A program made the translations under genes and the position numbers. A stretch of DNA of 64,000 bases from Clostridia bacterium (GTDB taxonomy: Bacteria > Bacillota > Clostridia > Christensenellales > CAG-917). The notes beneath the pieces were generated by a model. It was not told where the DNA came from. It was given only the letters and a program-made list of their open reading frames with translations, and ran no database searches. Within the stretch, counting starts at the first letter, position 1. Every line of letters starts with the position of its first letter. This document shows positions 5,008 through 21,311 of this stretch, in pieces. Location of the stretch: contig JAFTSA010000001.1 in the NCBI GenBank assembly GCA_017461985.1, positions 301 to 64,300 on the forward strand, in the 5' to 3' direction.

Positions 5008-5106
5008 CTTAATCGGGGGGATAGAAAACTTTATCCCCCTAACGTACTGTAAAGCAAAGGATAACCAAAAGATTAAAAAGAAAAATAGAAAATGGAGGTA
5101 AAACCT

Positions 5107-8100
5107 ATGAAGAAGTTTTTCTCAATCATCCTTTTAGTGCTGATGGTGTGTTCGTTCACGTTGACAGCGTGTAATAACACCGATACGCCGCATACCTGTG
5201 AAAGCGTATGTCCCGTTTGTGGAAACTGTATGGACGAAGATTGCACGGATTCGGCTTGTAGCAACAAGTGTCAGGGGCATACTCCTGCACCCGGAACGCA
5301 TACCTGTGAAAGCGTATGTCCTATTTGTGGAAACTGTATGGACGAAACGTGTACAGAAGCCGAATGTGAAGAAAAGTGCGCAGGGCACGAGCAATCGGAA
5401 ATGGCAGCGGCGCAGTTCGTTGCAAACACGGCTAACTATTTGACGGACGCAAACGAAGGTATTTCGGCGGCAGCGGCGGCTCTCGGCGGAAGTATTGAAC
5501 TTTCGTATGAAGAACCTTTCTTCCCGATGGAAATCCCGATGTCGGCAAGTGCGGCCGCCAGTTCAAGCGGTGTAAAATCACTGTCGGCAAGAAAGTATAA
5601 CGTAGGCAATTCCATCGATCTTCTTTCGGACGCGGAGGATGAAAAGGAAGAAGAAATGATGCTGTGCGCAAAATGCGGACAAGTAGAAGTTCCCGTTTCC
5701 CAAAAGTATTGCGACGCTTGCAAAGCAGCAATGGGCGGACAAACTGCTCCTAAGAATTATTCTACGGGAAGTGCTATGGAGCAATACATAATTTTCAACT
5801 CGGTAGCGAGAAAGATTCAACTTATCGTTGGCGCAACCGAGTACTATACGGAATACGATTTCCCGTTCCCGAACGAAAATGAACTTGCTCTTATCGGCAC
5901 GATTAAGTTTGAAGGCGAATTCACCAAACTTCTCAAAGAAATCGAAGATTATGAGTTAAGTGCAGACGGGTTCTACGTTATCGAAGAACCTTACTACCAA
6001 GACGGCACGTTTAATCCAGATACGGGCGAAATTGACAAAGAGTTAGGCGGACAAACGCTTATCTACAAGAAAGTACGTGGGTTTAAGCTTGAGGGCAACA
6101 CGCTCATCACTTCGTCGTATACAATTTCTTATCAATATATGGACAACAACGAAGAATTGATAAGCGAAGAAGTATACGTAGAATATACGATGGACGGCAA
6201 CAACTTCTATTATGAAAAGTACAAAATGGTAGACGGTCAAAAAGTCGTTGTCGATATGTTCGATATCATTAAAGAGGAGCCTGACGAAAATTCAGTGGGC
6301 GACGTGTATTACGTGCAAATGACCCTGAGCCAAGCAGAAATTACGGGCGTTCCCGCCGTGTACTTTGAAGAAGCGATGGATATCGCAGAGCAATGGGACA
6401 AATATGTAAACGAAAAAATGGGCACGGGATACCATGCCGAAGTTCCTACCAAGGTTTACTTAAACGGTAAAATCCACAAGATAGACCGAGACGTAATGTA
6501 CGAAATGTACTACTTCCGCGACTACGACTATGCGGCGGCAGGCTACGAAAGCTCTTGCTACGTTTATCCAATCGAAAATTGGGAAGAATTCTATGGGGAA
6601 TATTTCTATGAATATACGCGTGGAAATTCCGCACCGTTGCCCGAAAGCTGGAAAAACGGCTTCGATACCAACTTGGGCGCAAACCTTGAAGGTATGATTG
6701 AAGATTCGTTGTACGGTAAGTATGCGGAAACTCTTGTGTATAGAGCAAGCGGAAACGTTCAAATGCCAGAGGAAGGGGCAAAATATTATCCGTTCCAACT
6801 TAAAGAATCCAGCGCAACGTTAGATATCAACGATTCTTATGAAATCATTGCAAGTTCTGCGGACGACGCTGTTTGGAGCGTGAGTTCGTCCAATGAAGAA
6901 GTTGCAACCGTGAGCGGTTTAACCGTTCAAGCGGGCAGCATGGAAGGCGAAGCGATTATTACCGTGCAACGTAATAATCTCGTTAGATATTTCTACGTGC
7001 TCGTTCGCAACAGACTCGTGACCGACAATCCCGAAGAAATGACTATCCGTTTAGGAACTACGGGGCACGCATTTTTCAATGCGTATAGCAATCAAAACGA
7101 CGTGATTGTATTCTCGTCCGATAACGAAGAAATCGTTACCATCGACGAAACGGGGTGGATTACCGCGCATAAGGAAGGCGCAACGGCGGTTTGGGCGGCT
7201 ACGCAAGACGGTGAAAGATTTGAAAAGATGTTCGTTCGCGTAGTCGGCAGTGCGGATATCGTATCGTTTTATCAACCGAACGAAGGCAGCGAGGACGTAA
7301 TTTCAACGTTGCACCTTTTGGGACTGGGCAAGATTTCCGTTACTTACGATACGGTTTTGAGCTTGGACACTGAATATTATTTGCTTTTCGAGGGCTTGGA
7401 CGAGGGCGGCTCGTTCTATCAAGACACTCCGATTAACGGGCTTCCGATTTATAATCTCCTCATCAACGGACGGAGTGCGGTGGAGCATCCCGACGTGACG
7501 GTTTCGCGCGTTTACGAGGAGTACCAAAACGATACGGGCGGCACCAATTCGCATTTCCTCAATAATTACCGCAGCGTAACCTTCCATACGGCGGGAACGT
7601 ACAAGTTTGAATTTTGGTATCAACACCAAGGCGGTGAATTTGTCGAAAGAGATACCAATCAATCCTCTTATTCCAATGGCATTCCCATGAAGAACGTCGT
7701 GATTTTGGAAATCAACGTGACGGTTGGCACTCCGTATCCGTACAGATACGACGCGACCACGCACACTTACTACGTTTCCGATTACGCAGGCTTGCTTGCG
7801 TGGTACGAAGCGCAACAGCTTAACAAGAGCACGAATCTCGTGCTTGAAGCGGACATCTATATGCCGACCGTCGCGTCGGAGTTCTTGTTTGACCTTGACG
7901 GGGACGGCGTAAACGAAAGCAACTGGGGGCTTGAAACGGAGCGTTATACGGGTACAATTGACGGCAACGGTAAATATATTCGAGGCTTAACAATGAATAT
8001 CGACGAGAGCGCGAATAACGGTGCGTACGTTGCTTTTGTGTCGCAGATGTTAAGCGGTGGCGTTATAAAGAACATTAATTTTGCGGACGGTCAAATAACA

Positions 8101-8733
8101 AGCCGTTATGTCAGCGGCGTCGTCGGTAGACTTGCCGGCGGTAAAGTTATCAACTGTACCAATGCGAATACCCTTGTCGCTTGGGACGTGGCATCGGGAA
8201 TCGTACTCGATATTTGGTTCAGCGGACAAATTGTTGCTTGCGTGAATTACGGCTCGATTACCTGCGAAAACGGTGACGCTTCCGGAATCGTTTGCGGCTA
8301 TTCGGTTACCGTTGGCACTTACGCTACGGTTGTCGGTTGTATAAACTACGGTAGCGTACAGGGAAATATTGCAGGTGGTATCGTACCCCGCGGTGCGAAT
8401 TGGAAGTTGTACGGCTGCGCCGATTTCGGAACGGTGACAGGAGAAACGTCGGGGAACGTGATTGCAAAACAGTCTCGGGGCGTAGGCTTGTACGGATGCG
8501 TCTATTCGTTAGACGAAGGCTTTAAGGTGTTAGAGCGATTGACAAATGAAAAAAATGCAACCGTTTCTGATATAGGCATAATAGAAGACGCGATTGAAGA
8601 ATTAAACGCGGCGATCGAGCAATGCAACGCAACGGGTGGCATAAAATGCAAGTACCGTTACGTTCTCAACACCAATCCCACGACCTCCGAAGCGTATCCT
8701 CTTATTCTTCAAGAAGTGACGGACGCACAATAG
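5107..8733 (+). CDS. Giant surface lipoprotein with duplicated Cys-rich modules, two Big_2-like Ig domains and a C-terminal GLUG-like repeat region
   Basis: GGAGG 8 nt upstream of ATG 5107. Lipobox LTACN. HTCESVCP(V/I)CGNCMDE..C..KC.GH occurs twice. Big_2-like segments: VWSVSSSNEEVATVSGLTVQA and VFSSDNEEIVTIDETGWITAHKEG. C-terminal repeats of the type GGVIKNINFADGQI..SGVVGRLAGGKVINCTN. Confidence 0.8.
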   Translation: MKKFFSIILLVLMVCSFTLTACNNTDTPHTCESVCPVCGNCMDEDCTDSACSNKCQGHTPAPGTHTCESVCPICGNCMDETCTEAECEEKCAGHEQSEMAAAQFVANTANYLTDANEGISAAAAALGGSIELSYEEPFFPMEIPMSASAAASSSGVKSLSARKYNVGNSIDLLSDAEDEKEEEMMLCAKCGQVEVPVSQKYCDACKAAMGGQTAPKNYSTGSAMEQYIIFNSVARKIQLIVGATEYYTEYDFPFPNENELALIGTIKFEGEFTKLLKEIEDYELSADGFYVIEEPYYQDGTFNPDTGEIDKELGGQTLIYKKVRGFKLEGNTLITSSYTISYQYMDNNEELISEEVYVEYTMDGNNFYYEKYKMVDGQKVVVDMFDIIKEEPDENSVGDVYYVQMTLSQAEITGVPAVYFEEAMDIAEQWDKYVNEKMGTGYHAEVPTKVYLNGKIHKIDRDVMYEMYYFRDYDYAAAGYESSCYVYPIENWEEFYGEYFYEYTRGNSAPLPESWKNGFDTNLGANLEGMIEDSLYGKYAETLVYRASGNVQMPEEGAKYYPFQLKESSATLDINDSYEIIASSADDAVWSVSSSNEEVATVSGLTVQAGSMEGEAIITVQRNNLVRYFYVLVRNRLVTDNPEEMTIRLGTTGHAFFNAYSNQNDVIVFSSDNEEIVTIDETGWITAHKEGATAVWAATQDGERFEKMFVRVVGSADIVSFYQPNEGSEDVISTLHLLGLGKISVTYDTVLSLDTEYYLLFEGLDEGGSFYQDTPINGLPIYNLLINGRSAVEHPDVTVSRVYEEYQNDTGGTNSHFLNNYRSVTFHTAGTYKFEFWYQHQGGEFVERDTNQSSYSNGIPMKNVVILEINVTVGTPYPYRYDATTHTYYVSDYAGLLAWYEAQQLNKSTNLVLEADIYMPTVASEFLFDLDGDGVNESNWGLETERYTGTIDGNGKYIRGLTMNIDESANNGAYVAFVSQMLSGGVIKNINFADGQITSRYVSGVVGRLAGGKVINCTNANTLVAWDVASGIVLDIWFSGQIVACVNYGSITCENGDASGIVCGYSVTVGTYATVVGCINYGSVQGNIAGGIVPRGANWKLYGCADFGTVTGETSGNVIAKQSRGVGLYGCVYSLDEGFKVLERLTNEKNATVSDIGIIEDAIEELNAAIEQCNATGGIKCKYRYVLNTNPTTSEAYPLILQEVTDAQ

Positions 8734-9470
8734 TAAATCTATGCAACAACAAAAAAAGCATACGAATTAGCGTAGACGCTTTGAACTAACAAAGAACGGC
8801 GGTGGGCTTCGGCTCACCGCTTGTTATGTTTAATTTGAAAAAAGTAAAACGAAAGATGTGGAAATTGATGGCACTAGCTTGATAAAAATTTAAACTCTCA
8901 AAATGAAAGTTAGGCGTGCGCTTGGATATATACAAGTAGATAATGACCGTGAACAAATAATACGTAAAGTGTCTACCGAAACACACGAAACAACTAGACT
9001 CTTTAAGGGTGGCACTGTAAAAACTAAATACTATAACTACGATATTTACGTCGTTATATAATAAAAGAGCATAACTCGCTTTTATGAATTATGCTCAATT
9101 ATCTAAACTTGTTATGCTAGTTTCAATTTCTTGCGACTAAAGCCAATTTATGTTATCTAAAATGTAAAATTTACAAAACATTACACATGGCGACAAAGAA
9201 ATATACTTTGTATATTAAAGTTGAATCGTTTAGCTCTTCGAATCTTACGCCAGGAACCGCCGAATTATTGGCGGTTTTATTTTTATGCTTTTTGGCGGTT
9301 TTTGCAGATATTAGACGCGTGGCGGTTTTTGTCTTTTTGTCTGAAATCAAAAAACAATAAAAATAAAATTGCATAAAAAAAAATCAAGCGCAAAAACGAT
9401 TTTGAAAACATATTGTGTTTGCGACCAAATTATGGTAAAATGTATGCAGAAATCAACAGGGAAGGTCATT

Positions 9471-10500
9471 ATGAGAGCAACATTGAAATTTTTGAGTGAA
9501 CAAAGTGGTTTGTCAATAGCTGCCATTTCTCTTATTCTCAATGACAAGCCTGTGCGAGTTTCGCCCGAAAAAAAGATTCTTGTCAAAAATTTGGCAAAAC
9601 AATACAACTATAAGCCAAATATGACGGCAGTTGCTTTGGTGACAAAAAAGACAAAGACGATTGGTTTGATTTTGCCAGACATAGTTAATCCGTTTTTTGC
9701 TGTTGTTGCAAGTGAAATTAATCAAAAATTTCACGAGGCAGGATACAACATTATTTTGTGCAACACCAACAACGACATCGATCTTGAGAATAAATATGCA
9801 GGTATGTTAGAAGAGAAGCAGCTTGAAGCGCTCATAATTTGTGCTTCAGACGAAAATCATCAATGCGACCTTAGTGGGTTCTATGATCAAAACATACCAG
9901 TCATTTTTTTTTGATAGATACTACGCAGATTCCAACTACATAGTGTCTATTGACAACACTGAAGGGGCGCGTCAGGCAGTCAAATATCTTATAGAAAATG
10001 GTCATCAAAACATAGCAATGATCACCGGCCCACTTAGTTATCGATCTGCAAGAACGCGTATTGATGGTTATAAGGAAGCCCTCGTAGAGGCGGGATTGCA
10101 GGTCAACGAAGACTATATCGTTGTAGGGGATTACACTTTCGACGGAGGCCAAAGGGCGGCGAAAATAATCGGCGAGTTTGATGAAGTGACTGCCGTGTTT
10201 GCAAGCAACGACCTTATGGCATACGGAGCAATGAAGGAATTTTCTGACAGCGGCAAAAATGTGCCAAATGATATTTCCATCGTCGGTTTTGACGATCTTA
10301 ATTTTTCACAAATGTTGCGCACACCCTTGACTTCTGTCAAACAAAATTTGAAAGAACTAGCAGAAAACGTTTTTGGTTTAACGATGCGCGCAATAAATGG
10401 TTACGTCGCGCCTACGCACAAGGTCGTTGCGACCAACCTGATAGAGCGTGACAGCGTAGTCAACCGAGAAAGCGTTCACAATATTTCAGCAGTTAAATAG
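9471..10500 (+). pseudogene. LacI-family transcriptional regulator interrupted by a +1 frameshift in a T9 homopolymer
   Basis: The N-terminal HTH (ATLKFLSEQSGLSIAAISLILND) and first sugar-binding lobe are in frame 3 (tracked ORF 9369..9914). The rest (DRYYADSNYIVSIDN..VGFDDLNFSQMLRTPLTSV) is in frame 1 (9841..10500). The switch is at T9, 9904-9912. Eight Ts would read PVIFFDRYY in one frame (~342 aa). Confidence 0.85.
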
Positions 10501-10547
10501 AATTGCAAACAGATCCGTTCAATAATTTGAGCGGATTTTTTTGGGTA

Positions 10548-10576
10548 TTGACAATGGTTTTGACTTGCAGTATAAT
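10548..10576 (+). promoter_or_regulatory. Consensus sigma-A promoter for the downstream transport/catabolic locus
   Basis: TTGACA (10548-10553), 17-nt spacer, TATAAT (10571-10576). Confidence 0.7.
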
Positions 10577-10648
10577 CAACGTGAGTAAAACCTTTTATCA
10601 ACGAGCAAACCTTTTTTGCGTAGGACGAAAAACTTATTTTTTTGGACT

Positions 10649-10664
10649 GGTAAAACGATTTATC
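10649..10664 (+). promoter_or_regulatory. Candidate LacI-family operator (CG-centred pseudo-palindrome)
   Basis: GGTAAAACGATTTATC. The half-sites match 6 of 8 positions around a central CG. It lies between the promoter and the TTG start at 10691. Confidence 0.4.
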
Positions 10665-10690
10665 AAACTTATAACAAGGGGGAGTCAAAA

Positions 10691-12154
10691 TTGAAAAAAT
10701 CTAAACTTTTCATTGCTACAATTGTTTTTGTTCTTTTGTTTTCGTTGACATTTGCACTTGTCGCTTGCGACGAAAAGGGCAACGATGAAGTGATAAACAA
10801 TGACAACGATACAACACCAGACGCACCACAATACACGGCTTCTGTCACTTATACGGGGAGTGGTTTGATTATCATGCCCGGCAAGGATAGACCCAGCTAT
10901 ACTGCGACTGTCCGTGGCGTTATCGTTGATGAAACAAGCGGGGAGCCCCTCATTTCACAATTGAAAATTTGGGATAAAGCAGAAAACTTGATTTATCGTA
11001 CGGTCACTGACTATCTTGGTAGATATGAACTTGTTCTCCCTGACGGTAGCTACGATATTGAATTTAGCCATGGTAGTGAATATGAAATTGAAGTGCTCCG
11101 TGATTACGTGGTGTACACAAACGGTTATTTTAAACTGCCCGACATTTCTTTGAAACGCCTGTATTCATTGCCCAACTGGTATGCAGGAGATCTCCACCAA
11201 CATAGTACGTACAGTGATGGAAAGGATTTGCCTAGCGAAGTCCTCAAATCAAATATTGCAGTGGGCATGTCATACGGAATTTTGTCAGACCACAACAGCG
11301 TCTATCAAGTGGTTGAGTGGCTTGCCGGAAACAGAATTTATATTGGTGAAGGCAGGAATTTCTTGGCAATTCAAGGCTGGGAAGTGACCACGTCCAGAGG
11401 ACACTATCAAGCAATCAATAGCAGAGAAATTTTCAATGCAACCGCATGGTCGGCAAGTGATATTTTGCGTATTGCCAATGATATTCGTCTGCAACCGAAT
11501 ACAATTGCTCAGATTAATCACCCCGGCCGTACCGATGATATGGGATTCATTGATTGGAATCTGGCAGGACGCTTTGACACTATTGAAGTGTGGAATGGCG
11601 TTTACGCTCCTCCTTATCTTAGTGGTACAAATAAGTCCAGTTATGAGAAATGGGTTGAACTTATGAACAAGGGAACAAGACTTGCAATCGTTGGCGGAAC
11701 GGATAACCACGGTGTCAACGGCACGCCTTATGCTCCTGATTCAAATGAACTCGAATGGATCAAGCGCAATACGTATTCCGGCTGTCCCAGAACCTACGTT
11801 TATACGGAAGACTATTCGTTGGATGGAGTCTTATCTGCGATTAAACAAGGAAACTCATTTATTACAAACGGGCCTTTGGTGTTTGCAAATCTCAACGGCA
11901 AGAGTTATGGCGAAACAGTAACGCTTGAAGAGAACATGCTTCTCAACTTTGACCTCAAGTCAAATGAAGCGTTGAAACAACTTAAGATTTATGTCAATGG
12001 CAAGCTTGTCAAGACAATAGACATTGCTGACGGAGCATTTACGTACGAAGGTACGCTTGAACTTGAAAACCTAAAATCTGGTGACTGGATTAACTTGCAA
12101 CTAAGTGGTGATTTTGCCGGATTTGCAGTGACCAACGCAATATTTATCGAATAA
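10691..12154 (+). CDS. Secreted lipoprotein with a CarboxypepD_reg-like domain and a PHP-type (CehA/McbA-like) metal-dependent phosphoesterase domain
   Basis: TTG start 6 nt after AAGGGGGAG. Lipobox FALVACDE. GRYELVLPDGSYDIEF is a beta-sandwich signature. PHP motifs GDLHQHSTYSDG, ILSDHNS, INHPGR and GGTDNHG. Confidence 0.75.
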   Translation: MKKSKLFIATIVFVLLFSLTFALVACDEKGNDEVINNDNDTTPDAPQYTASVTYTGSGLIIMPGKDRPSYTATVRGVIVDETSGEPLISQLKIWDKAENLIYRTVTDYLGRYELVLPDGSYDIEFSHGSEYEIEVLRDYVVYTNGYFKLPDISLKRLYSLPNWYAGDLHQHSTYSDGKDLPSEVLKSNIAVGMSYGILSDHNSVYQVVEWLAGNRIYIGEGRNFLAIQGWEVTTSRGHYQAINSREIFNATAWSASDILRIANDIRLQPNTIAQINHPGRTDDMGFIDWNLAGRFDTIEVWNGVYAPPYLSGTNKSSYEKWVELMNKGTRLAIVGGTDNHGVNGTPYAPDSNELEWIKRNTYSGCPRTYVYTEDYSLDGVLSAIKQGNSFITNGPLVFANLNGKSYGETVTLEENMLLNFDLKSNEALKQLKIYVNGKLVKTIDIADGAFTYEGTLELENLKSGDWINLQLSGDFAGFAVTNAIFIE

Positions 12155-12191
12155 AAAAACGATAATAAATTATACAACCCGGAGGTAAATT

Positions 12192-13085
12192 ATGAAAAAA
12201 ACAGCACTCTTATTGATCGTGATTTTGGCAGTTATGTGCGTCTTTGTAGCATGCGATGAGCCCAACCAACCCGATGGCCCTGCCGCACCTGGCGCAGATA
12301 TCGTGATCAACGACGTCAAAACAATGACAGCGGGAATCACCGCAGTGTATCAAAACGAGAACGGTGATTTTATTGCAACTCACCACTCAAAGTTTACGGT
12401 CATCGACGACGATTTCACCGTCAATGAACTTGTTCAACTTTTCTTTGACAAATCTTATGGCGTGACAGCGCTTGACCCCGACAGCAACGGCTCAACCGAT
12501 GAACTCTTCCTGTCCTACGGCGCATGGCCTGATATTACAGATATTTCTCTTCCTAATACAGGCGAAATGCAATGGGTTGTTCGCGACAGCGCATATCAAC
12601 TTGTTTCTGACACAACAGCATCAGTTGTCGACAATGCAGAATACTACTACAGCTACGAAAGCATCGACAACCCCGTGCCTTTCACTGCAAGCGATCTTTC
12701 AGCAGTTGCACCCGATGATGACAAGCCTTATTTCTACATAAACACAACTAGTGCAAAAACCGTAAAAATCACCATCAGCGCAGAAAAATCTGATAAGTCA
12801 ATTGCAACGTTGTTCAGTGGAACAGTTCAAATCACCGATGACGATTTGACAGTTGAAGAAGTCATCAAGAAAGTCTGCGACGAGAGAGGTATTCTTTACA
12901 GCATAAGCGGTGGATTCATCAACTCAATCGGCGAGTACGCAAACGACTTTGGTTCAGCATATGCATGGTGGTCAAGCGGATTTATGGTCAACGGAGAAGA
13001 ATATGTCAACTATGCAGGAGTCAACGAAGTGTTTGTCGGTGACGGAGCAGAGATTTACGTAAATTACAGATACGGCACATTCTAA
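12192..13085 (+). CDS. Lipoprotein with a DUF4430-like (transcobalamin-beta-like) C-terminal domain
   Basis: GGAGG RBS. Lipobox VFVACDE. The C-terminus LTVEEVIKKVCDERGILYSISGGFINSIGEY..WWSSGFMVNGEEYVNYAGVNEVFVGDGAEIYVNYRY fits the DUF4430 pattern as I recall it. Confidence 0.6.
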   Translation: MKKTALLLIVILAVMCVFVACDEPNQPDGPAAPGADIVINDVKTMTAGITAVYQNENGDFIATHHSKFTVIDDDFTVNELVQLFFDKSYGVTALDPDSNGSTDELFLSYGAWPDITDISLPNTGEMQWVVRDSAYQLVSDTTASVVDNAEYYYSYESIDNPVPFTASDLSAVAPDDDKPYFYINTTSAKTVKITISAEKSDKSIATLFSGTVQITDDDLTVEEVIKKVCDERGILYSISGGFINSIGEYANDFGSAYAWWSSGFMVNGEEYVNYAGVNEVFVGDGAEIYVNYRYGTF

Positions 13086-13172
13086 ACTAAAACTTGACTG
13101 TAATAAGCAAAAAAACACACAATCACGTCCATTGCCGACGACGGCATGGATGTGATTGATATGGAGAAAGAT

Positions 13173-14336
13173 ATGAAGAAGACCAAAATTTTATCTATAT
13201 TGTTGGTGCTTTGCATTATTTGTTCATGCATATTTGCACTGACAGCATGTTCTGATGAAGAGGAAGGAAAAGAATTTGACCCTACATCAGCAAAAATCGC
13301 ATTGCTTGTTAATGGGACACTTGGTGATAAATCATTCTTCGATTCAGCCAACGAGGGTCTAAAACAAATCAAGGCTGCATATCCCAACACAACCGTTAAG
13401 GCCATTGAAATGGGCAACGATAGCACAAAATATCGTAGTTTCGTGGATGATGCTTGCGAAGAATATGACATCATCATTATGGGAACGTGGCAAATGTACA
13501 ATCATATGTCATATGCGACTGTCGAATATCCTGACAAAAAATTTATCCTGTTTGATTATGCAGGCGATTTCTCTGATGGAAAAGGCGCAAACAACCTTTA
13601 TTCAATTGAATTTAAACAAAATCAAGTCGCATTCCTTGGCGGAGTTTTGGCAGCGCAAATCGTTGGCGATTCAAGTCTTGCTCTTTCAAACGGTTCAAAG
13701 CAAATTGGCTTTGTAGGTGGCGCTGACTCCCCGATTATCAAAGACTTCCTCGTAGGATTTATTGAAGGTGTCCATTATGCCGACCCTGACTTTGACCCTA
13801 CCAAGGCTGCAAACGATCCTGCAAATGCAAACAAAATAAAGGTGCAAAGCAGTTTTATAGGAACGTTCCTTGATCCTACAAGAGCAAAAGACCAAGCAAA
13901 CATCCTGTACGACATGGGATGTGACCTTGTTTTTGCTGCTGCATCACAAGCAGGACTCGGCGCGCTGGAAGCTGCTGTTGAAAACAACAAATATTATCTT
14001 GCTTGCGACTCAGATCAGATCAGACTTTTTGCAGATCAACCTGCAAAACAACGTCATATCGTGGCAAGTGTTCTCAAAAAGGTTGACGTTGCAATTTTCC
14101 GTGCTTTTGAAAAGATTGTCAATGGCGAAATGGAGTGGGGCACAAACGAAAGAGTTGGATTTGAAGAGGATTGCATCGGTTTCATCGGATACAACGCAGA
14201 CATTCCTCAAAGAATGATTGACGCTGTTGAAGAAGCAGAAGCAAAGCTTAGAGCAGGTCAAATTACAGTGACATCTGCAGTGGGAAGCAATGCGGATATG
14301 TCCATTGTTGACGGCATAATTTATTCTGCAAAATAG
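13173..14336 (+). CDS. BMP-family (PnrA/Med-like) ABC substrate-binding lipoprotein, nucleoside/riboside type
   Basis: ATG 13173 after GGAGAAAG. Lipobox FALTACSD. BMP-like segments IALLVNGTLGDKSFFDSA, IGFVGGADSPIIKDFLVGFIEG and ACDSDQ. Confidence 0.8.
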   Translation: MKKTKILSILLVLCIICSCIFALTACSDEEEGKEFDPTSAKIALLVNGTLGDKSFFDSANEGLKQIKAAYPNTTVKAIEMGNDSTKYRSFVDDACEEYDIIIMGTWQMYNHMSYATVEYPDKKFILFDYAGDFSDGKGANNLYSIEFKQNQVAFLGGVLAAQIVGDSSLALSNGSKQIGFVGGADSPIIKDFLVGFIEGVHYADPDFDPTKAANDPANANKIKVQSSFIGTFLDPTRAKDQANILYDMGCDLVFAAASQAGLGALEAAVENNKYYLACDSDQIRLFADQPAKQRHIVASVLKKVDVAIFRAFEKIVNGEMEWGTNERVGFEEDCIGFIGYNADIPQRMIDAVEEAEAKLRAGQITVTSAVGSNADMSIVDGIIYSAK

Positions 14337-14560: not shown

Positions 14561-16102
14561 ATGGACAACGTATTACAACTGGTAGGCATCGGAAGAGTTT
14601 ATGGCAATGGCATAGTTGCAAACCGTGACATCAATATCGAAGTTCGACGAGGAGAAATCCACGCAATTGTCGGCGAAAACGGCGCTGGAAAGTCCACTTT
14701 GATGGAGATAATTTACGGTATGGAGAAGCCGGATTCCGGACAGATGTTTGTCTACGGAAAGGAAGTCAATTTCTCATCTTCAATGGATGCCATTAAAATG
14801 AACATCGGCATGGTTCATCAACACTTTATGTTGGTGAATTCTTTGACGGTCGGAGAAAATCTTATCCTAAATACCCCAAAAAATACAATTATCAACAAGA
14901 GAAAAATTGCACAATTAACACAGGAATTGTGTGAAAAATATGGTTTCAATCTTGATGGTAATGCGGTTGTGAAAAACTTGTCCGTTGGCAATCAACAACA
15001 ACTTGAAATCTTAAAAGCACTATATAGGGGTGCGCAAATACTTATACTTGATGAGCCTACTGCCGTTCTTACTCCTCAAGAAACGGAGAAGCTCTTTGAG
15101 CAATTGAAAAATCTTAAAGAGAAAGGCCATACAATTTTGTTTATTTCTCACAAACTCAATGAAATAGTCGGCATATCTGACAGAATTTCTATACTTCGTC
15201 AGGGCACTATAGTTGACACATTTGAAACATCCACCGTTGACGTGTCACAACTTTCAAACCTCATAGTAGGAAGAGAGTTTAGCGAAAAGATTGAAAAGCC
15301 TGAAATAGAGCGAGGAGACGTGGTTTTGAGGGTTGACGGACTTTCATACGCCAATTCTCCCGTCAAGAAATTGCTTGACGACGTCAGTTTCACTGTGTCT
15401 AAAGGTGAAATCGTGGGATTGTGCGGTGTTGAGGGCAATGGACAAAGAGAACTCATACAAGCAATTACTGGCGCAATAAAAAATTACAGCGGAACGATTG
15501 AACTGTGTGGCGCGTCAGTCAAAGGCATAAGCAGAAAAAAATTGCGTGAAAGGGGTGTTGCTCACGTCCCCGAAGACAGAATTGCTGAAGGTTTGAGCAA
15601 AGATTCATCTATTGCGGATAACCTCATTTCTACGCTGTATATAAACGGGAAGTTTATTAAGCACAAGTTTTTCCTTGATAGAAAGACGATCAAAGAGTTT
15701 TCAGATGAGCAGATAGCAAAATATGAAATAAAAGCCAACGATTCCAACGACATTGTCGGCATGCTTTCCGGCGGAAACATGCAGAAAGTGGTTGTAGCCA
15801 GAGAATTTGAAGATGATCCTGTCTTTGCAGTCATTGATCAACCTACAAGAGGCGTTGACATCGGGGCGTCAAAAATTATTCGCGACAAAATAGTGGAGCT
15901 ACGTTGCAATGGATGCGCCGTGTTGCTCAATTCAGCAGATTTGTCAGAACTGTTGAATATCAGTGATAGAGTGCTGGTATTTTATAGCGGAAAAATAGTG
16001 GCAGACTTTGAAAATCTGACCGAAATAGACGAAGAGACGCTGGGCAGATATATGCTCGGACTTGACGATATGTTCAGAGATGAAAAAGATGGGCAAGAAT
16101 AA
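14561..16102 (+). CDS. Tandem-domain ABC ATPase (ribose/nucleoside importer type)
   Basis: Walker A GENGAGKST, signature LSVGNQQQ, Walker B ILILDEP. The second half has LSGGNMQK. Confidence 0.9.
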   Translation: MDNVLQLVGIGRVYGNGIVANRDINIEVRRGEIHAIVGENGAGKSTLMEIIYGMEKPDSGQMFVYGKEVNFSSSMDAIKMNIGMVHQHFMLVNSLTVGENLILNTPKNTIINKRKIAQLTQELCEKYGFNLDGNAVVKNLSVGNQQQLEILKALYRGAQILILDEPTAVLTPQETEKLFEQLKNLKEKGHTILFISHKLNEIVGISDRISILRQGTIVDTFETSTVDVSQLSNLIVGREFSEKIEKPEIERGDVVLRVDGLSYANSPVKKLLDDVSFTVSKGEIVGLCGVEGNGQRELIQAITGAIKNYSGTIELCGASVKGISRKKLRERGVAHVPEDRIAEGLSKDSSIADNLISTLYINGKFIKHKFFLDRKTIKEFSDEQIAKYEIKANDSNDIVGMLSGGNMQKVVVAREFEDDPVFAVIDQPTRGVDIGASKIIRDKIVELRCNGCAVLLNSADLSELLNISDRVLVFYSGKIVADFENLTEIDEETLGRYMLGLDDMFRDEKDGQE

Positions 16103-17231
16103 TTTCAAAATAATGTTGACAAATATGCGCGCTAAACTTCAGGCAAAACAAGCGTCAAAAAGCATATCAAAACGGGTTGAGTCAATAAGGATTCAAACCG
16201 AGTTGTTGCGCACCCTTGTGGCCGTTGTCATAGCCTTTGCCGTGGCGCTTATAATCATATTGTGCGTTAGCAAACAGCCTATGGAAGCGTTCAAATATCT
16301 TGTAATCGGGCCACTTATGAAACCAAGATATTTTAATCAGGTGCTAGTGCAGATGGTTCCTCTTGCGCTTACGGGCCTTGCTCTTGCAATTATGTTGAAG
16401 GCCGGACAATTTAATTTGGCTACGGAAGGATCATTTATTCTTGGTGGCGTGCTGGCGGCATTTTTTGCAATAAAAGTTGCGTTGCCTATGGGGATACACC
16501 CGATTTTGGCCATTATTTTCGGCATTATCGGAGGTGCGTTTATTTGTGTTGTTCCAGCGATATTGAAACTTTCTTTTGGCATATCCGAGATGGTCGTTTC
16601 TTTGATGATGAACTATATTGCTCTGCGTATAGGCAACACCATCATTAGAGGAGCGTTGCTGGATGAATCTGCAGGGATTCTTACCACAGAACAATTTCAC
16701 GAGACTGCGCAAATGCACACAATCCCAGTTGGCGAACTGGAAATTCAAGTGGCGCTAATCATTATGGTGATTGTAGTGGTAGGCTTTTATGTGTATTTAA
16801 GCAAGACACGCAGTGGATACGCCTTACAACTCAGCGGATTAAATGGAAAATTTTTGGCATTTTCAGGCATAGGCGCAAGTGGGTTGATCCTTGCTTCACA
16901 AATTATGGGTGGAGCAGTCGCCGGTGGCGCTGGCGCTATGTACACGCTCAGCAACCTTGAAAGATATGATCTTGTCAACACCTTCCCAAATAAAGGTTTT
17001 GACGGCATGATTGTCACAATACTTGCCCGCAACAATCCTCTTCTTGTGCCGATTGCAGCGTTTTTTCTTGCGTACGTAAGAGAGGGCGCAGAGATTATGT
17101 CAAGGCACACGGACGTTTCTGTGGAAATTATGTCTATTATACAAGGCGTAATAATTATCTTTGTGGCAGGTCAAGCATTATTCTCCAAGATGCAAAACAA
17201 ACGCATAATCAAGGAGGTCGCAAATGGATGA
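16089..17231 (+). CDS. ABC transporter permease (BPD_transp_2 type)
   Basis: Multi-span hydrophobic protein. ATG 16089 overlaps the ATPase stop. The tracked ORF starts at 16062. Confidence 0.8.
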   Translation: MGKNNFKIMLTNMRAKLQAKQASKSISKRVESIRIQTELLRTLVAVVIAFAVALIIILCVSKQPMEAFKYLVIGPLMKPRYFNQVLVQMVPLALTGLALAIMLKAGQFNLATEGSFILGGVLAAFFAIKVALPMGIHPILAIIFGIIGGAFICVVPAILKLSFGISEMVVSLMMNYIALRIGNTIIRGALLDESAGILTTEQFHETAQMHTIPVGELEIQVALIIMVIVVVGFYVYLSKTRSGYALQLSGLNGKFLAFSGIGASGLILASQIMGGAVAGGAGAMYTLSNLERYDLVNTFPNKGFDGMIVTILARNNPLLVPIAAFFLAYVREGAEIMSRHTDVSVEIMSIIQGVIIIFVAGQALFSKMQNKRIIKEVANG

Positions 17232-18228
17232 TTTTTTCAACATAATTTTTTCAAATGAATTTTTAGTTTCAATTTTGCGTTTGTCGACCCCGATATTGTT
17301 TGCTGCGTTAGGCGCGCTGATATCAAACAAAGCAGGCGTTGTCAACATCGGTTTGGAAGGAATAATGCTGTTTGCTGCGTTATTTGGTGTGTTGGGTTGC
17401 TCGTGGACGGGAAATTTGTTCGCAGGGGGATTGATAGGCGTTTTAATAGGCGCGTTTGTAAGCGCGTTGCTTGCGTTTTCAACCTTGTACTTAAAGTCTG
17501 ACACGATACTCACCGGCGTAGTCATAAACTTGGTCGGCGCAGGAGGCACAATATTCTTCCTTGAGGTTTTCACGGGGGATAAAAACGTGTCCACCTCTAT
17601 TGTAAGCGAAGTTTTCCCTACTCTTGAAATTGAGGCTATCAAAGACGTACCATTTATTGGGGGGCTACTCAGTGGGCACAACGTGCTGACGTGGGTTGCT
17701 ATTGCTCTTGCAATACTGTTGTGGTTTGTTGTCAACAAGACGCATTTTGGAATTAAACTTAAAGCAGTTGGAGAAAATCCCGTCGCAGCAAGCAGTTTGG
17801 GAATTCCCGTCAAAAATTATAGATTTATTGCGATTGTGCTGAGTGGCGTTTTAGCCTCTGTAGGCGGAATATTCTTGTCTATGGGATATGTTTCTTTCTT
17901 CGCATCGAATATGACTGCGGGAAGGGGATTTATTGCGTTGGCAGCAGAAGCTATGGCAATGGGAAATCCCCTATTCACGTTGCTGAGTAGTCTGCTATTT
18001 GGATTTATGTCAGCGCTTGCGATTGCATTTGGTTCAAGTGGCTTTATGGCCATATTTAATGAAATATTTGAAATGATGCCTTACGTGGCAACCATTGTTG
18101 CTTTGATCGTGTATGCAGTTATTGCCAAACAAAAAAACAAAATGAAAGAGGTAAAAAATGGAAAAAGCTTGGGAAAGGGAATACAAAATGATGTGCGACG
18201 CCGTCCCTCAGGTATTAGAAGAAGATGA
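17224..18228 (+). CDS. ABC transporter permease (second subunit)
   Basis: AGGAGG RBS. Multi-span hydrophobic protein overlapping the previous stop. The basic C-terminal tail runs 71 nt into the next gene. Confidence 0.8.
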   Translation: MDDFFNIIFSNEFLVSILRLSTPILFAALGALISNKAGVVNIGLEGIMLFAALFGVLGCSWTGNLFAGGLIGVLIGAFVSALLAFSTLYLKSDTILTGVVINLVGAGGTIFFLEVFTGDKNVSTSIVSEVFPTLEIEAIKDVPFIGGLLSGHNVLTWVAIALAILLWFVVNKTHFGIKLKAVGENPVAASSLGIPVKNYRFIAIVLSGVLASVGGIFLSMGYVSFFASNMTAGRGFIALAAEAMAMGNPLFTLLSSLLFGFMSALAIAFGSSGFMAIFNEIFEMMPYVATIVALIVYAVIAKQKNKMKEVKNGKSLGKGIQNDVRRRPSGIRRR

Positions 18229-19549
18229 ACAAGGATGGTTGTTTTCAGAAACTATAGAAAATCTTGACGACACGTTGCTCAAGATGAAGTGGAAGAGCAA
18301 TGTCCCAGGCTCAAACGCCCCAGAGAGAGTCATTATAGGCGCTATTGCAGACGTTGGCAATATGGGATATAATGTTTCTGAAGCAGAAAAACTTATTGAC
18401 GAGGGCTTGGAATATTACAAAAATAATGATATGCTTGGACTCAATAGGGTCACGTGGCGTATTTGGAATATCCTAAACAACGCTCCAAAGATTGAAGGAC
18501 ACGAATATTTTTCATATGCTGTTTATGATACGTTTGAAAAGTATAAGAACAAAATCAATCTTGACCTTACGTACGATAAGGTTGACAAAGACAGTCAGGA
18601 TTTTCTTGATAGAACATATTATGGCTGGTTGGCGCAAATTGTTGGAGGCGCAATCGGCACTGCCATTGAGGGCTACGTAACCGAGCAGATTGAAAAAGCA
18701 TTCGGCGATATAAATTCGTATGTAAGAACACCAAACACTTACAACGATGACATCACTTATGAGATCGCCTTTCTGGCTGCAGCCGCCCGAAAAGGAAGGG
18801 CAGTGACGTCTGCTGATATTGCAGAGGAGTGGGCTGCGCTTGTGCCTTTTGGATGGTCGGCAGAAGAGTGGGCGTTGAAAAACATAAAAAGCGGAATATA
18901 TCCACCAGAAAGTGGATATTTGAACAATCCTTATCGTGAATGGATTGGAGCGCAAATGCGTGGTGCGGTGTGCGGCATGGTTGCTCCGGGCAACCCGGTT
19001 TTGGCGGCGGAGTACGCATATAGAGATGGTGTAGTGTCGCACTATAATAATGGTGTCCTTGGAGAAATTTTCAATGCAGTTATGGTTTCACTCAGCTACG
19101 TCAAAAAAGATGTGCGAGAAATAGTGGAACTTGCAGTGGAAAGTTATCTTCCCCATGATAGCGAATATTATGGCGTGGTCAAGTTTGCCCTCAATAATTG
19201 CAAAAAGTGCAGTGACTGGAGAACGGCATGGGAGCCTGTAAGAGAAAAATATAAGAGATACAACTGGATTCACGCATATCCAAATGCAGCGTCCGAGGTT
19301 ATTTCTCTGTGGTTCGGCAACGGCGACTTTGACAAAACGATGAACATTTCTTCAATGATCGGATACGACGTTGATTGCAATGCGGCACAAATTGCGACTA
19401 TAATAGGTATAATCAGCAAGGAAAACGCAATGGACGAACGATGGACAAAGCCCATTGGCGACGTACTTAAAACGTATTTGAGAAAATATAAGGAAATAAG
19501 CATTAGATCACTCGCTCAACAGACCGTGGATATTAGCAAAAAAATGTAG
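18158..19549 (+). CDS. ADP-ribosylglycohydrolase-family protein (463 aa)
   Basis: AAAGAGG RBS. Motifs VGGAIGTAIEGY and IGYDVDCNAAQIATIIG resemble the GDALG and DTDTNAA metal-site motifs of the family. Confidence 0.7.
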   Translation: MEKAWEREYKMMCDAVPQVLEEDEQGWLFSETIENLDDTLLKMKWKSNVPGSNAPERVIIGAIADVGNMGYNVSEAEKLIDEGLEYYKNNDMLGLNRVTWRIWNILNNAPKIEGHEYFSYAVYDTFEKYKNKINLDLTYDKVDKDSQDFLDRTYYGWLAQIVGGAIGTAIEGYVTEQIEKAFGDINSYVRTPNTYNDDITYEIAFLAAAARKGRAVTSADIAEEWAALVPFGWSAEEWALKNIKSGIYPPESGYLNNPYREWIGAQMRGAVCGMVAPGNPVLAAEYAYRDGVVSHYNNGVLGEIFNAVMVSLSYVKKDVREIVELAVESYLPHDSEYYGVVKFALNNCKKCSDWRTAWEPVREKYKRYNWIHAYPNAASEVISLWFGNGDFDKTMNISSMIGYDVDCNAAQIATIIGIISKENAMDERWTKPIGDVLKTYLRKYKEISIRSLAQQTVDISKKM

Positions 19550-19557
19550 AGGGAAAT

Positions 19558-20466
19558 ATGCATATGAAGAGAATTTTTGTAATGGGCAGCATGAATATGG
19601 ACATCGTTTTTGAGGTTGAAGGTCTTCCAAAAAATGGCGAAACCATTAATGCTAAAGACTTGCTTGTCAATCCGGGAGGAAAAGGAGCAAACCAAGCAGT
19701 TGCTGCAGCTAAACAAAACGTAGCGGTGACCATGTTGGGCGCAATTGGGAATGACCAGTTTGGCGAACAATTTCTGGCCGAGCTTAAAAACGTCGGGATA
19801 AATGCGCAATTTGTGACCAGAAAAGATTGTAGAACAGGTGTCGCAGGGGTGTTGCTACATCAAGGAGACAATCGAATAATGGTGTATGGCGGTGCAAATT
19901 CAGTCTATAGCTTTGAGGATTTTGCAGATATTTTAACCAAAAATGCTGAAAAAGGAGACATATTTGTAACACAACTTGAAACCAACATTGACGTCGTTTG
20001 TAAGGGATTGAAATTAGCAAAAGAGCTTGGCATGACAACAATTCTCAATCCTGCTCCGGCATCACAACAAATTGTTTCTGCGTTAAAATATTGCGACATC
20101 GTAATTCCAAACGAAATAGAAGCCGAAGTTCTTACAGGAATCCTTCCTTGCAAAGAAAACTACGCTGAGTTGCGTGATAAGTTTAAAAAACTTGGAGCGT
20201 CTTGTGTGATTATTACTTGTGGAAACAACGGAAGCGTGTATTTAAGTGACGATATTGAGCTCTTTGGCGCTTACGAGGTTGACGCCGTTGACACGACTGC
20301 TGCAGGAGATACGTATATCGGAGTTTTGTCTGCCAGTCTTGCAAAGGGCTATTCCATCAGGGATGCCATAAAGTATGCCACAGCGGCATCTGCAATCGCT
20401 GTCACTCGCAAGGGCGCGCAACGTTCTATACCCATGGAAAAAGAAGTGCAAGAATTTCTTAAATAA
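19558..20466 (+). CDS. rbsK: Ribokinase (PfkB family)
   Basis: NPGGKGANQAVAAAK and DTTAAGDTYIGVL motifs, 302 aa. Confidence 0.85.
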   Translation: MHMKRIFVMGSMNMDIVFEVEGLPKNGETINAKDLLVNPGGKGANQAVAAAKQNVAVTMLGAIGNDQFGEQFLAELKNVGINAQFVTRKDCRTGVAGVLLHQGDNRIMVYGGANSVYSFEDFADILTKNAEKGDIFVTQLETNIDVVCKGLKLAKELGMTTILNPAPASQQIVSALKYCDIVIPNEIEAEVLTGILPCKENYAELRDKFKKLGASCVIITCGNNGSVYLSDDIELFGAYEVDAVDTTAAGDTYIGVLSASLAKGYSIRDAIKYATAASAIAVTRKGAQRSIPMEKEVQEFLK

Positions 20467-20506
20467 AACACAATAAACAAGGAATATAAACTTTTTGTTT
20501 ACTATC

Positions 20507-20548
20507 AAATGGAAATCGTTCAAGCAGGAGCGGTTTCCATTTGTTTTT
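20507..20548 (+). terminator. Rho-independent terminator after rbsK
   Basis: aaatggaaatcg / cggtttccattt stem followed by gttttt. Confidence 0.7.
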
Positions 20549-20646
20549 CAAAATCAGATGGTTTTTTTGTTTGGTTGAAATTGATATGGGGTTGTGTTTT
20601 TGAGGAAGTGTGGTATAATGAGGGTAGTAAATGTTTGGAGTGGAGT

Positions 20647-21078
20647 ATGGTTGTCAAAGTCAAAAAGTTGATGGATAGTGCGGTGTTGCCCAAGTATGGC
20701 ACGGAGTTTTCTGCAGGGGCAGACCTTGTCAATGCGGGAGATAGTGTTGTTGTTGAGACTGGCAAGACAGTAATTGTTCACACCGGCATCTCAATGGAAA
20801 TCCCCGTAGGATACGTGGGGCTTGTGCACGCAAGAAGCGGTATGGCAACAAAGCGTGGGCTTGCACCTGCCAACAAGGTGGGCGTCATAGACAGCGACTA
20901 TCGTGGAGAAATTATGGTGGCTTTGCACAATCACGGCGACGAGGCTCAAACCGTTGAAATCGGTGAGAGAGTGGCGCAAATCATCATCGCTCCCTATGTG
21001 ACGGCAGACTTTGTTGAGGGTGACCTTGACGACACTGTTCGTGGCGATGGTGGCTTTGGCTCTACGGGCAGAAAATAA
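20647..21078 (+). CDS. dut: dUTP diphosphatase
   Basis: ATG 20647 after GGAGTGGAG. Motifs AGADL, RSGMATKRG, GVIDSDYRGEI and RGDGGFGSTG. Confidence 0.9.
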   Translation: MVVKVKKLMDSAVLPKYGTEFSAGADLVNAGDSVVVETGKTVIVHTGISMEIPVGYVGLVHARSGMATKRGLAPANKVGVIDSDYRGEIMVALHNHGDEAQTVEIGERVAQIIIAPYVTADFVEGDLDDTVRGDGGFGSTGRK

Positions 21079-21184: not shown

Positions 21185-21209
21185 TTTATTATCGCGAAAG
21201 CGAAATACA

Positions 21210-21308
21210 ACATATCCGATCTTGCTCACCTAAGGCGTGCTGGGCTATGGAGTGCAAGGCGTTAGGGTATGGCGGGAAACGGCCATGCCTCCCATTGTGG
21301 AAAGGAGA
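21210..21308 (+). promoter_or_regulatory. Probable Moco/Tuco (molybdenum/tungsten cofactor) riboswitch
   Basis: The ~120-nt leader contains TCCGA, GGGAAACGG, GCCTCCC (21287-21293) and GGAAAGGAG (21299-21307, also the RBS). These resemble the conserved blocks of the Moco RNA motif as I recall it. It sits upstream of a tungstate/molybdate transporter. Confidence 0.55.
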
Positions 21309-21311
21309 ACT

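Follow-up and report, generated by a model that had tools for sequence, protein, structure and literature searches.

Ribose-utilization (Rus) loci of Bacteroidetes carry ribokinases, LacI-type regulators, ADP-ribosylglycohydrolase (ARH) enzymes, nucleoside hydrolases and phosphodiesterases, and RNA, NAD, (poly)ADP-ribose and capsules have been suggested as what they act on (Glowacki et al., bioRxiv 10.1101/574913). By analogy, they appear to offer the closest described logic to the locus examined here, which lies in a 64,000-nucleotide stretch of DNA (the window) from a Clostridia bacterium of the Christensenellales (contig JAFTSA010000001.1, assembly GCA_017461985.1). The locus starts with two genes, designated gene 1 and gene 2, that are predicted to encode a PHP-type metallohydrolase lipoprotein and a DUF4430 lipoprotein, and these are followed by genes for a BMP-family importer, an ARH-family enzyme and a ribokinase. 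We suggest, with about an even chance of being right, that the products of genes 1 and 2 work together at the cell surface, as a module of two proteins that prepares an extracellular nutrient containing ribose for a riboside catabolic operon.

Like the Rus loci, this would be a ribose-centred catabolic locus with a ribokinase, often with a LacI-type regulator, in which variable surface or periplasmic and cytoplasmic enzymes are thought to free ribose from conjugates. Unlike the Rus loci, which combine SusC/D outer-membrane uptake with an inner-membrane permease, the cassette uses a BMP lipoprotein ATP-binding cassette (ABC) importer; it opens with a fixed pair, PHP hydrolase and DUF4430 binder, that has not been reported for Rus; and its carriers are mainly Gram-positive and wall-less bacteria and Anaerolineae. 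The importer itself resembles the BMP/PnrA nucleoside importers (PnrA, BmpD and BmpA) in its homologous substrate-binding lipoprotein and its four-gene transporter layout. However, the known BMP/PnrA salvage importers lack such neighbours as a surface hydrolase, a DUF4430 protein, an ARH-like enzyme or a ribokinase.

Each protein of the front pair also has described relatives. Gene 1 shares its PHP fold and metal-ligand set with CehA/McbA and other PHP enzymes, has a core of PHP domain plus C-terminal beta-sandwich as in structure 3e38, and is, like McbA, predicted to be extracytoplasmic. It differs from the characterised members in its putative additional N-terminal carboxypeptidase-regulatory-like domain and its predicted lipid anchor, and an obligate DUF4430 neighbour has not been described for them. 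Gene 2 resembles the transcobalamin-like members of the soluble-ligand-binding beta-grasp (SLBB) domains, which are secreted or surface modules, in some cases arranged in tandem or accompanied by a paralogue from the same operon (Burroughs et al. 2007, PMC1796856). For SLBB domains in bacteria, the contexts described are transporters of the CbiO/CbiQ type and fusions to alpha/alpha-toroids, with a link to B12 (PMC1796856), in contrast to the PHP hydrolase partner and BMP-type importer seen here, where a B12 riboswitch was not found.

A literature search returned no description of a PHP-DUF4430-BMP arrangement, as an earlier note on this DNA, made from the sequence alone, had surmised; the DUF4430 papers found concern other matters, and a search for ARH, ribokinase and transporter together returned nothing relevant. 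In Haemophilus, the NadN, e(P4), PnuC and NadR route for NAD uses phosphoesterases at the surface or in the periplasm, a lipoprotein among them, to strip phosphates from a nucleotide, so that the riboside can enter the cell. The order of events, dephosphorylation outside followed by riboside import, would be shared with the present locus. However, the Haemophilus route involves unrelated families, serves cofactor salvage and re-phosphorylates the riboside, whereas the operon described here appears to hydrolyse the riboside and use its ribose. The general logic of surface pre-processing, binding-protein import, cytoplasmic cleavage and a kinase is thus well known; here the cassette is built from three uncharacterised families.

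The features of the locus are as follows.

9471..10500, + strand: gene for a LacI-family regulator (Pfam LacI, Peripla_BP_1 and Peripla_BP_3 matches across two open reading frames, ORFs)
10511..10538, + strand: terminator-like hairpin after the regulator gene
10548..10576, + strand: sigma-70-type promoter, TTGACA-17-TATAAT, 12/12 matches
10585..10601, + strand: operator-like 17-mer, copy 1, GTAAAACCTTTTATCAA (motif search)
10650..10666, + strand: operator-like 17-mer, copy 2, GTAAAACGATTTATCAA (motif search)
10691..12154, + strand: gene 1, PHP lipoprotein, 487 amino acids
12192..13085, + strand: gene 2, DUF4430 lipoprotein, 297 amino acids
13146..14336, + strand: BMP/PnrA-family lipoprotein, ABC substrate-binding protein (Pfam Bmp)
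14561..16102, + strand: ABC ATPase with two ATP-binding domains
16062..17231, + strand: ABC permease 1 (BPD_transp_2)
17224..18228, + strand: ABC permease 2 (BPD_transp_2)
18158..19549, + strand: long ARH-family enzyme, 463 amino acids (Pfam)
19558..20466, + strand: ribokinase (TIGR02152)
20506..20543, + strand: terminator-like hairpin after the ribokinase gene, closing the operon

In order to evaluate whether this arrangement is conserved, a pattern scan was made of one genome per GTDB species. The scan gave 493 loci with a relative of gene 1, and the best 80 of these, plus nine metagenome loci, were annotated with profiles of the window proteins; PHP proteins with a phmmer E value of <1e-60 are referred to as close. 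A DUF4430 gene was directly downstream of the close PHP gene in 43 of the 46 loci with enough sequence, and a BMP gene followed the DUF4430 gene in 29 of 39 assessable close loci. The ARH gene was present in 16 and the ribokinase gene in all of the 17 close loci with a long enough contig. Among the 7194 ORFs of the 89 loci and the first 30 kb of the window, every one of the 53 DUF4430 matches was directly downstream of a PHP gene, and therefore the adjacency of the two genes is more than chance. A lipobox was found in 46 of these 53 neighbouring DUF4430 ORFs.

Where the importer was present, the gene order (PHP, DUF4430, BMP, ATPase, permease, permease, ARH) was fixed across phyla, and genes for ribokinase and a LacI or AraC regulator were at either end of the cassette. 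The carriers included Clostridia, Bacilli, Acholeplasmatales, Izemoplasmatales, Mycoplasmatota bacterium WC30, Anaerolineaceae (including Longilinea arvoryzae) and a few metagenome-assembled genomes (MAGs) labelled Bacteroidales; at least two of the genomes with the cassette were not labelled as MAGs. In Mycoplasmatota bacterium WC30 (CP134495.1, at ∼1.25-1.27 Mb; locus L034) the cassette is complete, and in Longilinea arvoryzae KOME-1 (NZ_DF967972.1; L027) it has no ARH gene next to it. Identity across cassettes was much higher for the ARH protein (41-83%) than for the PHP protein (∼31-38%) or the DUF4430 protein (∼20-29%). The co-occurrence of PHP lipoprotein, DUF4430 protein and BMP transporter, on which the proposal in the earlier note hinged, therefore recurs in dozens of genomes of several phyla, at 31-38% PHP identity and with the ARH and ribokinase genes included. 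The conserved core is the PHP-DUF4430 pair, which is most often partnered by the importer set.

The co-directional gene set in the window spans 9.4-20.6 kb on the + strand. We read its part from gene 1 to the ribokinase gene as a probable eight-gene operon with genes 1 and 2 as its first cistrons, one consensus promoter and one terminator. No strong promoter was detected between gene 2 and the BMP gene of the window. The 17-mer GTAAAACNNTTTATCAA occurred twice in the whole 64 kb (0.04 expected), both times between the promoter and gene 1. The operator-like motif, GTAAAACNNTTTATC(AA), is conserved: its 15-nt core was also found a short way ahead of the PHP gene in four distant cassettes (L007:7968-7982, L031:7044-7058, L038:9830-9844 and L045:3019-3033). 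LacI-type regulators flank the cassette in many loci, and the 17-mers are likely to be LacI-family operators of this type of operon. The LacI gene of the window is broken into two ORFs by one extra T in a homopolymer at 9903-9911, as seen in an alignment with the intact 333-amino-acid orthologues of loci L002 and L010. The extra T is either an error of MAG assembly or a real mutation, and the latter would de-repress the operon.

The domain layouts of the two front proteins are as follows.

Gene 1, residues 1-26: signal and lipobox
Gene 1, residues 27-69: low-complexity linker
Gene 1, residues ∼70-154: probable carboxypeptidase-regulatory-like beta-sandwich
Gene 1, residues 162-392: PHP catalytic domain
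Gene 1, residues 393-487: C-terminal beta-sandwich
Gene 2, residues 1-21: signal and lipobox
Gene 2, residues ∼35-170: divergent N-terminal module
Gene 2, residues 187-293: DUF4430 / transcobalamin-beta-like module

The likely start of gene 1 is TTG at 10691, 6 nt past the ribosome-binding site AAGGGGGAG, and this start agrees with the N-terminus of an 81% identical orthologue (P0003); gene 2 starts with ATG at 12192 and ends at 13085. Under a PROSITE-style rule, with the Cys within the first 40 residues, the gene 1 product has the lipobox FALVA-C26 (N-terminus MKKSKLFIATIVFVLLFSLTFALVA-C) and the gene 2 product the lipobox VFVA-C21 (MKKTALLLIVILAVMCVFVA-C). In both, a K-rich N-region and then a hydrophobic run of 18-21 residues precede the lipobox. 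Both products are thus predicted to be surface-anchored lipoproteins. A hydrophobic N-terminal segment was present at the start of 28/28 aligned gene 1 homologues, and a lipobox was present in 22 of 36 close ones.

The assignment of gene 1 to the PHP superfamily comes from family, residue and fold evidence. The NCBIfam model NF038032 (CehA/McbA metallohydrolase, PHP branch) matched residues 162-487 over its full length (profile positions 1-315 of 315) with 178.7 bits against a cutoff of 80, and the motif GDLHQHSTYSDG was found in the product. Across 28 aligned homologues, the most distant at 31% identity, H169, H171, D176, H201, E231, H238, H277, D338 and H340 were invariant. We take these nine residues to be the complete canonical three-metal ligand set of PHP enzymes (HxH, D, H, E, H, H, DxH), and the product is accordingly predicted to be a catalytically complete metal hydrolase. 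The Pfam PHP model (PF02811) scored below its gathering threshold (21.3 versus 26.4 bits), with only the N-terminal 44 residues of the domain aligned. The AlphaFold model of gene 1 (predicted local distance difference test score [pLDDT], 85.8; predicted template modeling score, 0.81) has an N-terminal helix, a disordered linker, an all-beta sandwich at 71-154, an alpha/beta barrel and a C-terminal beta-sandwich at ∼393-487. When it was searched with Foldseek, PHP structures came first, all with probability 1.00: 3e38 (5e-11), 2anu, 2yb1, 9etk and 3e0f. Of these, 2yb1 is Cv1693 with AMP and phosphate, and 9etk is RNase AM. Weaker sequence matches were to PolX-PHP, a nucleoside bisphosphate phosphatase and RNase RNM; in a PDB sequence search the short N-terminal motif alone matched PolX, and identity to solved structures was only 17-20%.

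The N-terminal beta-sandwich of gene 1 also gave sub-threshold Pfam scores (CarboxypepD_reg, PF13620 / PF13715, 22.7-22.9 bits versus a cutoff of ∼32). The same families are recorded for several homologues, and the family profile of gene 1 matched carboxypeptidase M in its regulatory domain (E = 0.004) as well as the N-terminal domain of a SusC protein, matches that support the probable assignment of this domain.

McbA, the namesake of the best-matching family, is a periplasmic carbaryl (carbamate-ester) hydrolase (PMC11302072). Because the family-level match is to CehA/McbA, the phosphoesterase activity of gene 1 is something that we infer. Gene 1 may instead cleave an ester, carbamate or amide in the way of CehA/McbA, for example by deacylating a modified riboside or some other compound before uptake, and the sub-threshold score of the Pfam PHP model, which was built mostly from phosphoesterases, is in keeping with such chemistry. 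However, the N-terminal motif and the full three-metal ligand set agree with PHP phosphoesterases that act on nucleotides, Cv1693 and RNase AM are among the fold matches, and we know of no natural ribose-linked carbamate substrates. Hydrolysis of a bond other than a phosphoester therefore seems rather improbable.

For gene 2, the Pfam DUF4430 model (PF14478) was again sub-threshold (18 versus 23.8 bits, residues 220-292), no NCBIfam model matched, and a PDB sequence search gave nothing meaningful. The proteins in the same position in other operons are lipoproteins of 145-166 amino acids with recorded DUF4430 matches. A hidden Markov model (HMM) built from five such same-position proteins, four of which had a recorded DUF4430 match, matched residues 187-293 of gene 2 with E = 3.4e-13, and HHalign of its C-terminal half against 35 same-position proteins gave 98.8% probability and E = 1.3e-16. 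Gene 2 is thus homologous to proteins that pass the Pfam DUF4430 model. Tandem DUF4430 proteins of ∼290 amino acids, with two clear modules that each scored 95-185 bits against the single-module profile, were found in seven loci (L029, L043, L044, L050, L052, L054 and L088), which shows a recurrent duplication of the binder. Gene 2 is as long as these orthologues, and in its low-confidence model the secondary-structure pattern of the C-terminal half recurs in the N-terminal half. The two halves aligned weakly with each other in HHalign (E = 3.3e-4, 38% probability), and the N-terminal half did not match the DUF4430 family profile significantly (E = 0.13). The tandem orthologues and the recurring secondary structure make it plausible that the N-terminal half is a degenerate second DUF4430 module. 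Relatives of the exact two-module form numbered five in a full HMMER search of 1.84 billion representatives and three in a word-index search, and because so few were found this form appears to be a narrow, fast-evolving clade.

The earlier note had presented both products as lipobox proteins ahead of the transporter genes, the first as a carboxypeptidase-regulatory-like beta-sandwich joined to a PHP phosphoesterase and the second as ending in a DUF4430-like domain. The lipoboxes (C26 and C21) bear this out, as do, for gene 1, the 178.7-bit NF038032 match, the invariant metal ligands and the PHP-fold model and, for gene 2, the family HMM (E = 3.4e-13) and HHalign (98.8%) results, although the Pfam models for both proteins were sub-threshold. 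The C-terminal beta-sandwich of gene 1 at ∼393-487 had been overlooked, and phosphoesterase proves to be a label of the superfamily, the family match being to CehA/McbA. The remark that PHP enzymes are usually cytoplasmic points to nothing unusual here: McbA is periplasmic, the gene 1 homologues have the N-termini described above (28/28 hydrophobic, 22/36 with a lipobox), and an extracytoplasmic location is normal for the CehA/McbA branch.

DUF4430 is the C-terminal domain of transcobalamins (PMC4350170), and it forms the transcobalamin-like clade of SLBB domains, whose members are typically secreted (PMC1796856). Structures with the transcobalamin beta domain were among the fold matches of the gene 2 model, which has a pLDDT of 57: 5no0, 5np4, 4kki and 3u7z matched with probabilities of 0.84-0.89 and E values of just 0.03-0.1, and tandem ubiquitin-like domains matched as well. 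These fold matches are only suggestive; they fit the picture of a tandem beta-grasp / transcobalamin beta domain without proving it. A corrinoid role might be imagined, in which DUF4430 binds a cobamide, the PHP enzyme cuts the phosphodiester of the nucleotide loop outside the cell, and the resulting alpha-riboside (for example alpha-ribazole) enters through the BMP system and is then cleaved by the ARH-like enzyme; ARH enzymes as a rule act on alpha-linked ribosyl bonds. Bacterial members of the clade have been predicted to scavenge B12 or its precursors, and the same study permits other metabolites as ligands (PMC1796856); among the weak fold matches of gene 2 are the transcobalamin beta domain with and without cobalamin (5np4 and 5no0). 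However, a search for cobalamin riboswitches was negative in the 64-kb window and in 14 related loci representing both kinds of context, the regulators belong to types associated with sugar catabolism (LacI and AraC), and no corrinoid transporter or cobamide-salvage gene was among the annotated genes of the loci examined. In addition, a true ribokinase and a catabolic layout would suit a bulk carbon source rather than a nanomolar vitamin. The corrinoid idea, to which the transcobalamin-like fold gives rise, thus finds no regulatory support, and it seems highly unlikely. A link to Bacteroides BtuH as a DUF4430 protein that binds B12 was also considered and was dropped, as the BtuH paper mentions neither "DUF" nor "transcobalamin".

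The genes downstream of the pair are consistent with riboside import and breakdown. The BMP protein matched Pfam Bmp with 141.7 bits (cutoff, 24.1), and its nearest solved structures are the nucleoside binders BmpD (E = 7.6e-20), BmpA and PnrA. PnrA from Treponema and BmpD and BmpA from Borrelia bind ribonucleosides (PMC7093131). The ARH protein matched PF03747 with 137.1 bits (cutoff, 26.2), and its ARH domain occupies residues 156-426. The cassette ARH proteins, 41-83% identical across cassettes and phyla, share a conserved N-terminal extension of 155 amino acids. In 25 of them (the window and 24 loci), N196-D197-D198 and D404-x-D406 (NDD and DxDCN motifs) were invariant; presumably the NDD and DxD motifs form the acidic metal site of the ARH family. 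No NCBIfam model matched the cassette ARH proteins, and their only solved relative was the remote MJ1187 (E = 5.7e-4), which was found in a profile search of the PDB, a single-sequence search giving none. The cassette ARH-like enzymes make up a distinct long subfamily. MBQ9107216.1, from a Clostridia bacterium MAG, has the same sequence as the window ARH protein, and the public names of the set are family-level labels only. The ribokinase passed the TIGR02152 equivalog cutoff (307.3 versus 299.65 bits), and because a true ribokinase is present, free ribose is expected to be made in the cytoplasm.

Under the proposed scheme, the PHP enzyme would first hydrolyse a ribosyl compound that cannot be imported as such, releasing a neutral riboside. 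The substrate would most likely be a phosphorylated riboside, a nucleotide or an oligomer, because the gene 1 family resembles nucleotide-acting PHP enzymes in sequence and fold. The DUF4430 lipoprotein would bind the substrate or the product at the membrane surface and either present it to the enzyme or pass it to the BMP protein. The riboside would then enter via the BMP system, the ARH-like enzyme would cut the bond at C1 of the ribose, and ribokinase would trap the free ribose as ribose 5-phosphate. That an ARH fold is used, and not one of the standard nucleoside hydrolases or phosphorylases, hints at an unusual linkage and a non-canonical riboside. A more specific version, which we regard as unlikely, is that the pair is an unrecognised, phylum-spanning surface complex for a riboside that ordinary nucleoside enzymes cannot handle, with alpha-linked or ribose-ribose-linked compounds as candidates, such as ribosyl-adenosine from poly(ADP-ribose) or cobamide alpha-ribosides. 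The extracellular capture-and-dephosphorylate step feeding the importer that the earlier note proposed is plausible and partly supported: the surface pair and its linkage to the importer stand, and the phosphoesterase chemistry is what we infer from the likeness of the family to nucleotide-acting PHP enzymes.

Several observations weigh against the proposal that the pair pre-processes a nutrient for the riboside operon. The literature yielded no activity, substrate or ligand to go with it. McbA cleaves a carbamate ester and not a phosphoester (PMC11302072), and the nearest structural neighbours of gene 1, 3e38 and 2anu, are themselves uncharacterised. The structure model of gene 2 is of low confidence (pLDDT, 57), and the frameshift in the LacI gene of the window makes regulation in this strain uncertain. 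In ∼10 of the 39 assessable loci, about a quarter, the pair has no BMP importer nearby. Three close PHP genes, in loci L015, L020 and L046, have no recognisable DUF4430 neighbour, and PHP relatives of <31% identity are found in unrelated contexts with neither a DUF4430 nor a BMP neighbour (Lachnospiraceae, Paenibacillus and Melioribacter). These distant relatives were left out of the functional inference. In the unit on which the earlier note built, the link between the two front genes is thus tight and the link of the pair to the transporter looser.

The loci without an importer raise the possibility that the PHP-DUF4430 pair is autonomous, for example in turnover of an envelope polymer or in scavenging of another compound, and that some lineages recruited it to a place beside the riboside importer, which it would not feed. 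Surrounded by unrelated genes, the pair is found on its own in L003/L004, L011-L014, L016-L019, L024, L041 and L050; carriers of such lone pairs include Christensenellales-like MAGs, Candidatus Limiplasma, Oscillospiraceae and Salinibacterium, and the window PHP protein is as close to stand-alone PHP proteins (36-39% identity) as it is to those of cassettes (∼31-38%). Recruitment of this kind is harder to reconcile with the gene order from PHP to ARH, which is fixed across phyla wherever the importer is present, and with the operator-like motif, which in the window and four distant loci precedes the PHP gene and not the BMP gene. Furthermore, the stretch from gene 2 to the BMP gene has no strong promoter in the window, and in genomes with a stand-alone pair the importer may be encoded elsewhere. 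An autonomous pair is therefore considered improbable.

A further context was recorded for L046, with L020 alongside it. In L046 (a Bacillota MAG, 8212-13652), the close PHP orthologue follows genes for a NiaR-type regulator (HTH_11 and 3H) and a PTS_EIIC_2 membrane protein, with genes for a Dabb protein, a PfkB kinase and a pseudouridine synthase downstream. This context may hint at a link to pyridine nucleotides or modified nucleosides.

As a specific case of the pre-processing scheme, the pair could degrade extracellular NAD(P), nicotinamide mononucleotide, ADP-ribose or poly(ADP-ribose) to ribosides such as nicotinamide riboside or ribosyl-adenosine, much as NadN and e(P4) supply PnuC in Haemophilus. 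The cytoplasmic enzyme does belong to the ADP-ribosylglycohydrolase family, a close PHP orthologue does sit behind a NiaR-type regulator in L046, and Bacteroidetes ribose-utilization systems have been proposed to target NAD and (poly)ADP-ribose (bioRxiv 10.1101/574913). However, the NiaR link is a single locus that has no DUF4430 gene, the cassette has no NAD-salvage genes, and the ARH protein is just remotely related to any characterised ARH. Scavenging of pyridine nucleotides or ADP-ribose is, on this evidence, a quite improbable specialisation.

Several other features of the region were recorded. In the closest relatives, a second set of BMP, ATPase, permease and permease genes is directly upstream of the LacI gene (L010:3217-8700 and L002:132-2278; 81% PHP identity). 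At this position the window has a gene at 5092-8733 for a predicted lipoprotein of 1213 amino acids with a repeated Cys-rich N-terminal motif (HTCESVCPxCGNCMDExC), the only Pfam match of which is one Big_2 domain; it is not conserved beside the cassette in other loci. The dUTPase (dut) gene is outside the conserved cassette. Its longest ORF (20509-21078) begins inside the terminator hairpin of the riboside operon, and family models align from residue 47, so that the true start is probably at ∼20650. A molybdenum/tungsten cofactor (Moco) riboswitch (21203-21323, 68 bits) follows directly after the operon. The riboswitch overlaps GTG 21237, the first start listed for an ORF resembling a molybdate- or tungstate-type binding lipoprotein, and the true start of that ORF is therefore probably further downstream.

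If the proposal that the pair pre-processes a ribosyl nutrient is correct, the eight-gene cassette would give a role to surface PHP hydrolases of the CehA/McbA type, to bacterial transcobalamin-like DUF4430 lipoproteins and to the long ARH subfamily, and it would be a Gram-positive and wall-less counterpart of the ribose-scavenging systems of Bacteroidetes. If the riboside is indeed non-canonical, the long ARH-like protein would be the first ARH-fold enzyme shown to function in nutrient catabolism on a non-ADP riboside. The carriers include gut Clostridia, Acholeplasmatales, Izemoplasmatales and Anaerolineae. As fermenters whose biosynthesis is limited, they may find a significant source of carbon in scavenged ribosyl compounds.

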